From assembly GCF_003334255.1 (NCBI RefSeq), contig NZ_QOWU01000009.1: a stretch of DNA of 64,000 nt, one strand, 5' to 3'. The DNA is from Escherichia coli. Its GTDB lineage: Bacteria > Pseudomonadota > Gammaproteobacteria > Enterobacterales > Enterobacteriaceae. Positions within the stretch are counted from its first letter, which is position 1. Each line of letters starts with the position of its first letter. The position numbers were made by a program, and so were the translations under genes. The notes under the pieces were generated by a model, which made no database searches, had not been told where the DNA came from, and saw only the letters and a program-made list of their open reading frames with translations. Below are positions 47,156 to 48,419 of this stretch, piece after piece.

Positions 47156-48025
47156 TTATTTCGCCTGTGGTGCAGTTTTGCTGGTGGATTGAACACGTAA
47201 GTGATGCAGCGCGCGTAAGCATTGATCCTGGGTTAGCGGTTGGGCGTTATTCGCCGCTACGGTGCGAACATAGACCTGACATGGCACACCCGCGAGTTTT
47301 TTCAGTCGTGGGCTGAAATCAAGCATTCGGCGAGTGATCGCTTCTATTTCTTTACCCGGCGTTGCTTCACGCGTTTTCACCACTGCGCCGCTAAATTGTT
47401 CTTTGCCACTTTCATCTTTAAAGCGGTAAAGCACCGCCAGATAATGGTCGAACAAGTTATGTTTCCATTCCGGTTGGGAATAGGTGTCATATTCCAGATT
47501 GCCATTGTCCTGGCAGTCAACGTCGTATAACGGCAGGAAATCTAACAGTGAGGTAATACGTAATGCCAGTTCACGCATTTCCGCATTATTAATTGCATGA
47601 ATGATTGCTCGCGCCAGCATTTCAATCTGCAACTCATTGACGACTAACTCACATTTGCTACCGTCATGTAGCGTTAATACGAAGGTAAGATTTTCGCCTT
47701 GATTATCGGTAAGTTCCAGCGTGTTAACCCGACGATTAATATCGGCATTTTTAAGCTCATCAACCAGAATTTCTGGGATGTTTTCTGCCATTTTCTTAAT
47801 GACTTTATCGCGAGCTTGCTCATACTGAAGGTGTGCAGCAGCATCCAGTTTATGCTTTTGATGCAGACGACTTTCCAGCGCAATCAGCAGGTCGCGCAGT
47901 TCCATGACAGACATAAAGAACAACGATTCTTTATTGCGAGGTTCTTTAATTTTCAGCGCCAGTGCAATGAAATTATTACTCTTGCGAATAACACCGGTAT
48001 TAACACCCTTGATGCTTATGGCCAT
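47156..48025 (-). CDS. yjeJ: Uncharacterised protein YjeJ (289 aa)
   Basis: 289-aa ORF with AT-rich coding and upstream sequence; REP elements on both sides. Confidence 0.85.
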   Translation of the reverse strand: MAISIKGVNTGVIRKSNNFIALALKIKEPRNKESLFFMSVMELRDLLIALESRLHQKHKLDAAAHLQYEQARDKVIKKMAENIPEILVDELKNADINRRVNTLELTDNQGENLTFVLTLHDGSKCELVVNELQIEMLARAIIHAINNAEMRELALRITSLLDFLPLYDVDCQDNGNLEYDTYSQPEWKHNLFDHYLAVLYRFKDESGKEQFSGAVVKTREATPGKEIEAITRRMLDFSPRLKKLAGVPCQVYVRTVAANNAQPLTQDQCLRALHHLRVQSTSKTAPQAK

Positions 48026-48288
48026 GTAGGTTCTCCCTAACCATTTCTCAATTAAATAATTAATTTTAATTTATAAGCCAGATAAATGGGCTTGGTAGTA
48101 ATAGTTGTTAAAATAACATAAATAGCCGTACTCACTCTATATAAACAGAAAAGAAAGGTTAATTATTGGTGTTAGCTATATAAAAAGTAACAACAGCAAT
48201 GCATATGAATAATTAAAGGTTATGCAACGGGCAAAGATTAAACTTCCCAGTTTAATGACAGGTTGCTGTACTTGCGTTTGTTGCTCTT

Positions 48289-48388
48289 GCCGGATGCAGC
48301 GTAAACGCCTTATCCGGCCTACAGTTCATTGCAAATCCATTCAATTTCAATGCACGATGTAGGCCTGATAAGCGTAGCGAATCAGGCA
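48289..48388. repeat. Pair of REP elements between epmB and yjeJ
   Basis: gccggatgcagcgtaaacgccttatccggcctac (48289-48322) and gtaggcctgataagcgtagcgaatcaggca (48359-48388). Confidence 0.75.
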
Positions 48389-48419
48389 ATTTTAATGTTT
48401 AACTTCCCTGTTTAATCAG

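Follow-up and report, generated by a model that had tools for sequence, protein, structure and literature searches.

The region examined has the gene order groESL-yjeI-yjeJ-epmB-efp of the E. coli K-12 chromosome and lies within a 64,000-nucleotide stretch of DNA, here called the window. The yjeJ coding sequence occupies positions 47156..48025 on the minus strand as a 289-codon open reading frame, is annotated as yjeJ and matches Pfam family PF15922 over its full length. Its product has 289 aa, a mass of 33 kDa, a pI of 7.7 and no transmembrane segment. A preliminary description of this DNA had presented yjeJ as an AT-rich gene without a recognizable domain, bracketed by REP pairs, horizontally acquired and probably silenced by H-NS. 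The compositional part of this description holds, as the GC content of the coding region is 45.2% compared to ~50-53% in the neighboring genes and 49.9% in the window, the sixth lowest among 54 window genes (z = -1.07), and GC3 is 45.3% (z = -1.39). The same bias does not extend to codon adaptation, which had been suggested as a check alongside GC. The codon adaptation index, calculated with weights from the Sharp and Li table, is 0.33 and equals the window median, and rare codons occur at average frequency. These values indicate a modestly AT-rich coding region and do not indicate unusual codon adaptation.

The spacer upstream of yjeJ (48026-48419, 394 bp) has a GC content of 35.0%, and its REP-free part of 255 bp (48026..48280), which comprises the yjeJ 5′ UTR and promoter, has 30.6%, corresponding to the 0.4th percentile among 255-bp windows. 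In MG1655 coordinates this part is 4,374,235-4,374,490. This region had rightly been singled out as especially AT-rich. The lowest 150-bp stretch of the spacer has 24% GC, second lowest of 30 intergenic regions and similar to the adiA and cadBA promoter regions, and an AT-rich spacer of ~180 bp upstream of yjeJ is kept in most genera. A ribosome-binding region read from the sequence, the GGTTAGGGAGAACC block at 48030..48039 on the minus strand, lies just 5′ of the ATG (48023-48025) and is unchanged between Escherichia and Citrobacter in an alignment of the upstream regions. A table from genomic SELEX lists a sigma-70 promoter for the yjeJ-epmB spacer (PMC3946193), and pattern matching placed this proposed promoter at 48134..48162 on the minus strand, with a -35 element TTAACC (48157-48162), a 17-nt spacer and a -10 element TAGAGT (48134-48139). 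The proposed promoter is weak by consensus and was missed by a generic promoter scan.

Published RNA-seq supports the suggested silencing by H-NS, as a partial repression. In MG1655, yjeJ increases from ~107-134 normalised counts to 604-804 in an hns deletion, a 6-fold change (PMC12460168, Supplementary Table 1) with log2FC 2.61 and p = 1.8e-44, and it reaches 927-1212 counts in an hns stpA double mutant (log2FC 3.25, 9.5-fold up; PMC12460168). Treatment with netropsin, a compound that removes H-NS from AT-rich DNA, also increases yjeJ expression (log2FC 1.46; PMC12460168). The authors of this Nature 2025 dataset flagged yjeJ neither as horizontally transferred nor as chromosomal-hairpin-associated (PMC12460168). 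Because YjeJ protein was detected by proteomics in LB-grown cells (PMC9508795), repression of the gene is partial. On the basis of its composition and of the de-repression seen in hns mutants and with netropsin, the 48026-48280 tract is a candidate, and probable, target of H-NS/StpA. The genomic SELEX table does not mark the yjeJ-epmB spacer for H-NS (PMC3946193), and the effect of hns mutation on yjeJ could be indirect. An indirect hint of H-NS occupancy is that loss of both hns and stpA unmasks an FNR site close to yjeI (PMC3688515). In its AT-rich promoter tract, its 6- to 10-fold increase in hns and hns stpA mutants and its response to netropsin, yjeJ resembles other AT-rich genes repressed by H-NS/StpA. 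However, it differs from H-NS-silenced xenogenes in being neither strain-specific nor recently acquired, in a distribution that is not patchy and in the partial nature of the repression.

The REP pairs on both sides of yjeJ are real. The upstream BIME (48280..48394), in the 3′ region of epmB, contains inverted REPs at 48289-48318 and 48363-48387, and the downstream BIME (46981..47095), between the convergent yjeI and yjeJ genes, contains inverted REPs at 46988-47012 and 47057-47086. The two BIMEs are mutual inverted copies with arms 83% and 93% complementary, and both give sub-threshold matches to the Rfam family naRNA4, a REP-derived RNA. Like other E. coli BIME/REP elements, they are imperfect palindromes of 25-30 nt that lie pairwise, in inverted orientation, in extragenic 3′ regions, and nothing about them is unusual except a 19-bp direct repeat around the upstream BIME. 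Copy B of this repeat (TTAAACTTCCCAGTTTAAT, 48238..48256) and copy A (TTTAACTTCCCTGTTTAAT, 48397-48415) are identical at 17/19 positions, and strains without the upstream BIME carry a single copy immediately 3′ of the epmB stop codon.

The upstream BIME occupies its site in 3,253 and the downstream BIME in 2,995 of 5,426 E. coli genomes, an occupancy of 55-60% compared to 100% for yjeJ. The phylogroup B2 strain ATCC 25922 contains yjeJ and neither BIME, and CT282 contains yjeJ with the upstream BIME only; the yjeI-yjeJ spacer of both strains is 49 bp and lacks the downstream element. Like ATCC 25922, E. albertii and every other genus examined lack the upstream BIME. The gene and the repeats therefore do not co-occur in the manner of a mobile element bounded by inverted repeats, since yjeJ is present without either BIME. 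Additionally, REPs are found in 5 of the ~31 intergenic regions of the window, and by our own combinatorics the chance of two REP-bearing regions adjoining is P ~0.5, so that REPs on both sides of yjeJ are not above chance expectation. The REP bracket is incidental, the elements being later, strain-variable insertions into 3′ untranslated regions that are unrelated to the arrival of yjeJ.

Presence of yjeJ across Escherichia and Shigella, which had been proposed as a check of horizontal acquisition, is not patchy. All complete E. coli genomes (5,426/5,426) carry the gene, 5,397 of them in intact form with IS1 insertions and deletions affecting it in a few strains, and Shigella and Salmonella carry it as well. 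In Salmonella diarizonae the reading frame is interrupted by a premature stop at codon 98, and in S. arizonae the gene is truncated. A search for related loci, seeded with an alignment of 8 YjeJ sequences, showed that epmB, yjeJ and then opposite-strand yjeI and groEL are kept in this order in 43 loci from >15 genera of Enterobacteriaceae. Universal presence in this family, which had been named as incompatible with an acquired gene, is thus largely what is observed. The dN/dS ratio of yjeJ is 0.04-0.06 inside Escherichia and 0.06-0.18 elsewhere, indicating purifying selection. yjeJ is a real, functional and vertically inherited gene of the Enterobacteriaceae, and its universal presence in E. 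coli, its synteny in >15 genera and the purifying selection acting on it argue that it is not a recent island.

No true phage carrying yjeJ was found, as four apparent phage matches corresponded to 2 Salmonella chromosomal contigs and 2 short unannotated "phage" records. In Kosakonia sp. S29 and Phytobacter a yjeJ-yjeI gap of 2.1 kb encodes a predicted 572-aa protein, which resembles methyl-accepting chemotaxis proteins by sequence inspection only and was rejected as a partner since its conservation beside yjeJ is absent. A yjeJ deletion has served as a neutral linked marker (PMC10679819), and no phenotype of the deletion is reported in the literature. The gene is missing from the supplements of PMC4720273 and PMC4288151, the term PF15922 was not found in the literature search, and among the listed literature matches mentioning yjeJ no title or abstract relates to microcins.

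The statement that YjeJ has no recognizable domain is right in substance, as its sole Pfam match is the self-named family PF15922 (YjeJ-like; E = 7.3e-175, residues 1-283 of a 283-position model). There were no matches in NCBIfam or PADLOC and no significant ones in PHROGs. The peak Kyte-Doolittle 19-residue mean is 1.23, under the usual threshold of ~1.6, and the protein is soluble. Remote homology and structure prediction had also been recommended. A profile built from 25 YjeJ sequences gave 0 matches at E <= 10 against PDB sequences. The AlphaFold2 model is confident (pLDDT 93.2, pTM 0.88), and none of its Foldseek matches in the PDB was significant (all E >= 0.04, TM <= 0.43). The best structural match by two methods was to Pur-alpha repeats I-II, below significance in Foldseek. 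The model appears to resemble PUR/Whirly folds weakly. Like these binders of single-stranded nucleic acids, the predicted structure is built of recurring modules, each with a beta-sheet and then a helix. No sequence-profile relationship to them emerged from the PDB profile search. Comparison of the three structural modules with hhalign gave probabilities <1% and no detectable sequence similarity, so that evidence for sequence repeats is lacking. The whole protein is near neutral in charge and modules 2 and 3 are acidic.

A context for yjeJ was found in ten loci of divergent relatives (L052, L054-L057, L059-L063), where its homologue is linked to a microcin export cassette in the order double-glycine microcin precursor(s), HlyD-type adaptor, C39-peptidase ABC exporter and YjeJ. 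The gap between the exporter gene and yjeJ is 12-30 bp, and YjeJ proteins have 278-291 aa. At least five of the ten cassettes adjoin yjeI, the site of yjeJ in E. coli (L052, L055, L057, L060, L063), and three of these five also have groESL alongside. The cassette at the yjeI site was seen in Klebsiella, Entomohabitans and several other Enterobacterales, and the same cassette is found at other loci in Budvicia and Kosakonia radicincitans. The exporter matches models of bacteriocin peptidase ABC transporters (E = 1e-141) and the adaptor best matches HlyD type I secretion adaptors. Precursor genes were identified in L054-L057 and L059-L061, one or more per cassette, encoding a Gly/Ala-rich core behind a 15-residue double-glycine leader; the Entomohabitans precursor has 111 aa. 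The leaders are of textbook form, for example MRELSVFEMNEIAGG and MKELTINEMNLVSGA, and the precursors are homologous across loci. The exact leader strings were not found in the supplements of PMC9746304, where alignments are split into blocks.

Microcin V, a class II microcin, is encoded with a precursor (cvaC), an immunity protein (cvi), an adaptor (cvaA) and a C39-peptidase ABC exporter (cvaB). The cassette of the relatives is like such clusters in its leader-bearing precursor, HlyD-type adaptor and C39-peptidase exporter. However, it has no evident small membrane immunity gene and ends instead with the gene for soluble YjeJ, and the E. coli K-12 locus differs further in lacking all three defining genes. 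A screen for other conserved small open reading frames in the cassettes found only the precursors, which leaves YjeJ as the only unassigned conserved gene. Hydrophobic open reading frames in other frames of the precursor gene were considered as immunity genes and rejected, as they are not conserved. A short unannotated immunity open reading frame could have escaped the conservation screen.

The cassette genes diverge at different rates. Averaged over pairwise comparisons between cassettes, exporters are 77% identical, adaptors 66% and microcins 46%; YjeJ diverges fastest, with a mean of 32%. YjeJ identity between cassettes tracks that of the exporter (rho = 0.70) and that of the adaptor (rho = 0.74) and is uncorrelated with that of the microcin (rho = 0.16, p = 0.49), so that a signal of toxin-immunity co-variation is absent. 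In Klebsiella the GC content falls from 61% in epmB to 41% in the exporter gene and 37% in yjeJ, showing that the cassette is AT-rich. Stand-alone YjeJ homologues are also found on Serratia plasmids. The presence of the AT-rich cassette at several loci and of stand-alone homologues on plasmids makes it likely that the module as a whole came from a foreign source in the distant past. In this older sense, horizontal acquisition can be upheld, while a recent or REP-bounded island is contradicted by the universal and syntenic presence of the gene.

The explanation that we consider the best overall, and probably correct, is that yjeJ is a vertically inherited remnant of the cassette, held by H-NS/StpA, later joined by REPs and serving an orphan protection role. 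According to this explanation, yjeJ would be what is left of a class II microcin export operon, whose final gene it was. The precursor and exporter genes would have disappeared in the lineage that gave rise to Escherichia, Salmonella, Citrobacter, Kluyvera and others, and the low GC of yjeJ would have been retained from the cassette. We infer that the direction of evolution was loss of the cassette rather than gain. In a neighbor-joining tree of YjeJ, midpoint-rooted and without support values, the stand-alone proteins form one clade and the cassette-linked proteins branch outside it. One K. pneumoniae strain, in which the precursor gene is absent, the adaptor is frameshifted and the exporter and yjeJ are intact, was counted as a decay intermediate. 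The C39-peptidase ABC exporter and HlyD-type adaptor are absent from the window and all stand-alone loci, and searches of the window and of 45 E. coli-like loci for the microcin precursor gene gave no match. Against such a loss, no remnants of precursor, adaptor or exporter were detectable upstream of any stand-alone yjeJ. When all the spacers upstream of stand-alone genes were searched by permissive tblastn for the regulator, precursor, adaptor and exporter, the matches were at chance level only. In E. coli, yjeJ would be transcribed from the weak sigma-70 promoter inside the 255-bp tract, and H-NS with StpA would keep its expression low and non-zero.

With regard to function, we infer that YjeJ serves in self-protection or in handling of the microcin, most likely protecting against the cassette microcin. 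It may act as an immunity protein, or it may protect by binding the pre-microcin in the cytoplasm, and E. coli may keep yjeJ as an orphan protection gene. Known class II microcin immunity proteins have 51-216 aa, reside in the inner membrane and are encoded beside the precursor. The cassette-linked YjeJ homologues share with them a place within a microcin operon, but they are larger, soluble and encoded at the far end of the operon, without the small size and transmembrane helices of that group. We tentatively suggest, as a possibility that falls short of even chances, that YjeJ represents a new class of microcin self-protection, large, soluble and cytoplasmic, with PUR/Whirly-like modules and encoded after the exporter. 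In that case the universal stand-alone copy in E. coli, Salmonella and Citrobacter would serve, under control of H-NS, as an orphan immunity gene against Gly-rich microcins of Klebsiella-clade and other enterobacterial neighbors. Cross-protection by E. coli YjeJ is doubtful, judging from the sequences, because it is only 20-35% identical to the cassette-linked proteins. Orphan bacteriocin or microcin immunity genes have been discussed for E. coli (PMC12546727). yjeJ is similar to these in being one gene of a toxin-export module kept without toxin and exporter, in purifying selection and in fast divergence between lineages. It differs in being a universal E. coli core gene rather than a variable accessory gene, in that immunity is only putative, and in encoding a soluble protein bigger than any verified microcin immunity protein. 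The microcin-mining pipeline cinful limits immunity candidates to 250 aa (PMC9746304). YjeJ is therefore excluded by design, a possible reason for its having been overlooked.

Three other explanations were weighed against the cassette remnant. A recently acquired, REP-delimited and H-NS-silenced foreign cassette would fit the low GC and GC3, the very AT-rich upstream tract, the flanking BIMEs as mutually inverted copies and the increased expression in hns mutants. Nevertheless, universality in E. coli and synteny in >15 genera largely refute it; the GC deficit is common to 40/41 orthologues and the codon adaptation index lies at the window median. Moreover, the REP pairs are missing in 40-45% of yjeJ-bearing E. 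coli genomes and from ATCC 25922 altogether, their adjacency is expected by chance, and yjeJ was not classed as horizontally transferred (PMC12460168). We regard this origin as highly improbable. If instead YjeJ were a PUR/Whirly-type binder of ssDNA or RNA, it might act as a transcriptional or post-transcriptional regulator of microcin production in the cassette and have been co-opted in E. coli for another regulatory task. This proposal seems unlikely given the absence of a significant solved-structure match, the empty PDB profile search, the lack of mutual sequence similarity among the three modules, the near-neutral protein with two acidic modules, and a beta4-alpha motif simple enough to be convergent.

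The remaining explanation, to which we likewise assign a small probability, makes YjeJ an export accessory or chaperone for a large glycine-rich pre-microcin and a slowly decaying, functionless relic in E. coli. The 12-30 bp gaps point to probable co-transcription or translational coupling with the exporter, and YjeJ diverges in step with the exporter and adaptor and not with the microcin. Decay would be consistent with the damaged Salmonella diarizonae and S. arizonae copies, the IS1 insertions and deletions in a few E. coli strains and the lack of a reported deletion phenotype. However, a relic would not be expected to remain intact in 5,397/5,426 E. coli genomes with dN/dS ~0.05, or to be kept across >15 genera without the exporter, and class II microcin export, as known from the MccV system, requires no components beyond an ABC exporter, an adaptor and TolC.

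Among the core genes of E. coli K-12, yjeJ is one of those still without a function, phenotype or informative domain. Its placement as fourth conserved gene in a class II microcin export operon, which Klebsiella and other genera have in intact form at this locus, provides a directly testable hypothesis and a first testable role. YjeJ is also a component that falls outside current microcin-mining rules, in which proteins of <=250 aa that span the membrane are expected. Finally, low GC and H-NS repression need not mean recent transfer, as the signature of yjeJ has persisted at one locus across a bacterial family.

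The window comes from the E. coli K-12 chromosome. The yjeJ coding sequence occupies 47156-48025 on the minus strand (289 codons) and is separated from epmB by a spacer of 394 bp that ends at the epmB stop codon at 48420. Its GC content is 45.2% (z = -1.07) and its GC3 45.3% (z = -1.39), the sixth lowest among the 54 genes of the window, and the REP-free part of the upstream spacer (48026-48280) drops to 30.6% GC, which is the 0.4th percentile of 255-bp windows. The AT-richness that the preliminary description attributed to both the coding and the upstream region is thus confirmed; the codon adaptation index (0.33) and rare-codon use are both at the window median. 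Among the spacers of the window, only yjdM-crfC is lower in GC than the most AT-rich 150 bp upstream of yjeJ, and adiY-adiA is one of few that are comparable. Further low-GC genes in the window (26375-26872, 34187-35725, and 10958-11719) include ghoS and ghoT (35%), cadC (42%), adiY (41%), and yjdJ (41%), and several of this group are known H-NS targets according to a SELEX table (PMC3946193). Compared with NZ_CP087136.1, a record derived from BW25113, the window is shifted by one base upstream of fumB (18581-19470), owing to a 1-bp indel somewhere between yjdF and fumB, with point changes also found in basR, cadB, and dcuA.

Published expression data bear on the proposed silencing by H-NS. 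In MG1655, normalized yjeJ counts rise from 107-134 in the wild type to 604-804 upon hns deletion (log2FC 2.61, p 1.8e-44) and to 927-1212 in the hns stpA double deletion (log2FC 3.25, p 1.2e-137), while stpA deletion gives 35-96 (log2FC -0.55, p 0.0002) and netropsin 258-361 (log2FC 1.46, p 9e-27) (PMC12460168, Supplementary Table 1); the yjeJ row of that table is blank in the horizontally-transferred-gene and chromosomal-hairpin columns. The YjeJ protein was also detected in cells grown in LB (PMC9508795). Repression of yjeJ by H-NS is therefore supported at the expression level, and it is partial. In genomic SELEX, the spacer between yjeJ and epmB was assigned a constitutive sigma-70 promoter (TTAACC-17-TAGAGT; PMC3946193), and this motif maps to 48134-48162 of the minus strand. 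A direct repeat of 15 nt (CTATATAAACAGAAA and CTATATAAAAAGTAA; 48137-48151 and 48176-48190, at a distance of 39 bp) overlaps the -10 region of this proposed promoter and could be a regulator site, Nac being a reported regulator of yjeJ (PMC7417836).

REP pairs (BIMEs) were confirmed on both sides of the gene, downstream at 46981-47095 and upstream at 48280-48394, and the two are inverted copies of each other. REPs occur in five of about 31 intergenic regions in the window; by our own combinatorics, two REP-bearing regions would be adjacent by chance about half the time. Both BIMEs sit at the 3' ends of genes, the usual REP niche, and their presence varies among E. coli genomes (downstream 2,995/5,426; upstream 3,253/5,426). 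ATCC 25922 (phylogroup B2) has zero REPs in its 49-bp yjeI-yjeJ and 234-bp epmB-yjeJ spacers, strain CT282 has the upstream BIME only, and outside E. coli the upstream BIME occurs only in cryptic clades of Escherichia. Both REP pairs are thus secondary to yjeJ. On either side of the upstream BIME lies one copy of a direct repeat of 19 bp (48238-48256 and 48397-48415, 17/19 identical), present as a single copy right after the epmB stop in empty-site strains, which looks like a target duplication or a precise-excision substrate. Neither is usually described for REP or BIME insertions.

The yjeJ coding sequence was identified in all 5,426 complete E. coli genomes, covering at least 80% of its length in 5,397. 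Partial copies in the remaining 29, together with an IS1 element interrupting the gene in one strain (entries H31, E. coli D53-1, and H60, OY757949), are consistent with yjeJ being dispensable in the laboratory; a yjeJ deletion has been used as a neutral linked marker (PMC10679819). Scanning one genome per species gave 45 loci, and all 43 that were informative for gene order showed epmB and yjeJ followed by yjeI and groEL in the opposite orientation, in genera including Escherichia, Citrobacter, Salmonella, Pseudocitrobacter, Kluyvera, Superficieibacter, Trabulsiella, Yokenella, Intestinirhabdus, Phytobacter, and Pluralibacter. An intact copy, the counterpart of STM4332, is found at this site in Salmonella serovar Infantis, and the type strains of Salmonella diarizonae (CCUG 30040T; L028, 6001-6870, in-frame stop at codon 98) and S. 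arizonae (L042, 6225-6872, N-terminal part out of frame) carry pseudogenes. The GC content of 40 of 41 orthologs is below that of their five neighbors (mean deficit 7.4 points), and an AT-rich spacer of about 180 bp lies upstream in most genera; the gene is low in GC regardless of its location. A reading of yjeJ as a recent, REP-bracketed acquisition fails on this universal presence, on synteny at every informative locus, and on the strain variability of the BIMEs, and a recent island is likewise ruled out by the conserved gene order and the shared GC deficit.

YjeJ evolves faster than its neighbors: identity to the E. coli protein is 93% in E. albertii, 67-74% in Citrobacter, and 40-60% elsewhere, compared to 77-99% for EpmB, YjeI, Efp, and GroEL. 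The dN/dS values (0.04-0.06 within Escherichia, 0.06-0.18 in other genera) show clear purifying selection. In Citrobacter sp. NCU1 and Awk 4 (L040 and L041; yjeJ at 6001-6858), YjeJ shares only 41% identity with its counterparts in other Citrobacter, with YjeI at 96% and EpmB at 93%, which suggests occasional replacement of the allele by a divergent one at the same locus. The interval between epmB and yjeI is a hot spot for insertions. An insert of about 2.1 kb separates yjeJ and yjeI in Kosakonia sp. S29 and Phytobacter (L036, L038, and L047; 6877-8990), encoding a putative 572-residue protein that resembles a methyl-accepting chemotaxis protein, and about 2 kb lie between epmB and yjeJ in C. 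youngae ATCC 29220 (L012).

PF15922, a self-named Pfam family, was the only domain match of YjeJ; NCBIfam and PADLOC gave zero matches and PHROGs a non-significant one, so that the absence of a recognizable domain holds in practice. The 33-kDa protein (pI 7.7) has zero hydrophobic segments, for which reason the annotation "inner membrane protein" in some entries from Salmonella and Enterobacter is unfounded. A confident AlphaFold2 model (pLDDT 93.2, pTM 0.88, 25-sequence alignment) comprises three beta-sheet-then-helix modules followed by a C-terminal strand and helix. The family is small, with 97 matches in 1.84 billion representative proteins, all traced ones from Enterobacterales. Several records are mislabeled or contaminated (L003, L017, L045, and AFDB entries), such as a "Bacillus coahuilensis" contig with a yjeJ 100% identical to that of E. 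coli, a "Bacteroidales MAG" contig with a 99% identical copy adjoining a groEL only 63% identical, a plainly enterobacterial "Chryseobacterium" contig, and UniProt entries that assign YjeJ to Trichuris trichiura and Thelohanellus kitauei. Divergent members share 20-35% identity with E. coli YjeJ. Full-length homologs occur near replication and partition genes on Serratia plasmids of 18-57 kb, in one of which (Serratia marcescens, L048, 7001-7858) the gene adjoins a Tn3 transposase on the replication/partition-gene side. On E. coli plasmids of about 30 kb, parG is followed by a 163-residue version that corresponds to modules one and two, at a distance of 27 bp in pLAU-OXA4 (L049, 7001-7492).

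In ten loci from divergent relatives (L052 Klebsiella pneumoniae, L054 Budvicia diplopodorum, L057 Entomohabitans teleogrylli, L059 Kosakonia radicincitans, L055, L056, and L060-L063), yjeJ lies behind a same-strand gene for a C39-peptidase ABC exporter, with a gap of 12-30 bp, and the exporter gene is itself preceded by an adaptor gene. For the exporter, the match is to bacteriocin peptidase ABC exporter models (E = 1e-141), and for the adaptor the best one is to HlyD type I secretion adaptors. Seven of the ten (L054-L057 and L059-L061) carry one to three ORFs of 68-124 residues upstream of the adaptor, homologous across loci, with textbook double-glycine leaders (e.g., MRELSVFEMNEIAGG, MKELTINEMNLVSGA, and MKTLSVQDMNNVSGA) and Gly/Ala-rich cores. 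Judged by its gene content, the cassette is a class II microcin cluster. It directly adjoins yjeI in L052, L055, L057, L060, and L063, followed by groESL in L057, L060, and L063; this is the site of stand-alone yjeJ in E. coli. The four-gene unit is found at other positions in Budvicia and K. radicincitans, and so moves as a module. The cassette is AT-rich, with GC in Klebsiella of 61% for epmB, 41% for the exporter, and 37% for yjeJ. The cassette of one K. pneumoniae strain (CP125156, 1197-6300) lacks the precursor gene and has an adaptor split by a frameshift (1576-1818 and 1665-2861) with exporter and yjeJ intact, and is a decay intermediate; yjeI also appears split, and the 5.37-Mb record, filed as a plasmid, is evidently a chromosome. 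E. teleogrylli carries three tandem precursor genes (789-2362; 86, 111, and 68 residues; two are truncated) separated by repeated AT-rich spacers, which points to duplication and decay of toxin genes inside one cassette. Traces of precursor, adaptor, or exporter were not found in the window or at any stand-alone yjeJ locus. In a neighbor-joining tree, stand-alone YjeJs form one clade with the cassette-linked forms branching outside.

The simplest reading of these sequences is that yjeJ is what remains of a microcin export operon, its orphaned last gene. An AT-rich microcin module would have become established between epmB and yjeI early in the history of the family, and the line that gave rise to Escherichia, Salmonella, Citrobacter, and many others would then have lost the toxin and exporter genes, keeping the last gene of the cassette. 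We favor a self-protection role for YjeJ, either as immunity or as cytoplasmic sequestration of the pre-microcin, because no other conserved unassigned ORF was found within the cassettes, because YjeJ is their fastest-diverging component (mean pairwise identity 32%; microcin 46%, adaptor 66%, exporter 77%), and because stand-alone copies have long been under purifying selection. Against this role, class II immunity proteins that have been verified are small, membrane-located, and encoded beside the toxin gene, the E. coli protein is only a distant relative of the cassette-linked YjeJs, and the divergence of YjeJ tracks that of the exporter (rho = 0.70) but not that of the microcin (rho = 0.16). 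The main rivals are that YjeJ acts as an export accessory or as a PUR-like nucleic-acid-binding regulator.

A microcin-related paper was not found among the searchable literature mentioning yjeJ, and immunity candidates longer than 250 residues fall outside the cinful mining pipeline (PMC9746304); together, these may be why the link between yjeJ and microcins is unreported there. The features initially described are real and the H-NS guess was right, but the probable origin from a microcin operon is the more interesting result. Under the favored self-protection role, yjeJ of E. coli would be an orphan protection gene.
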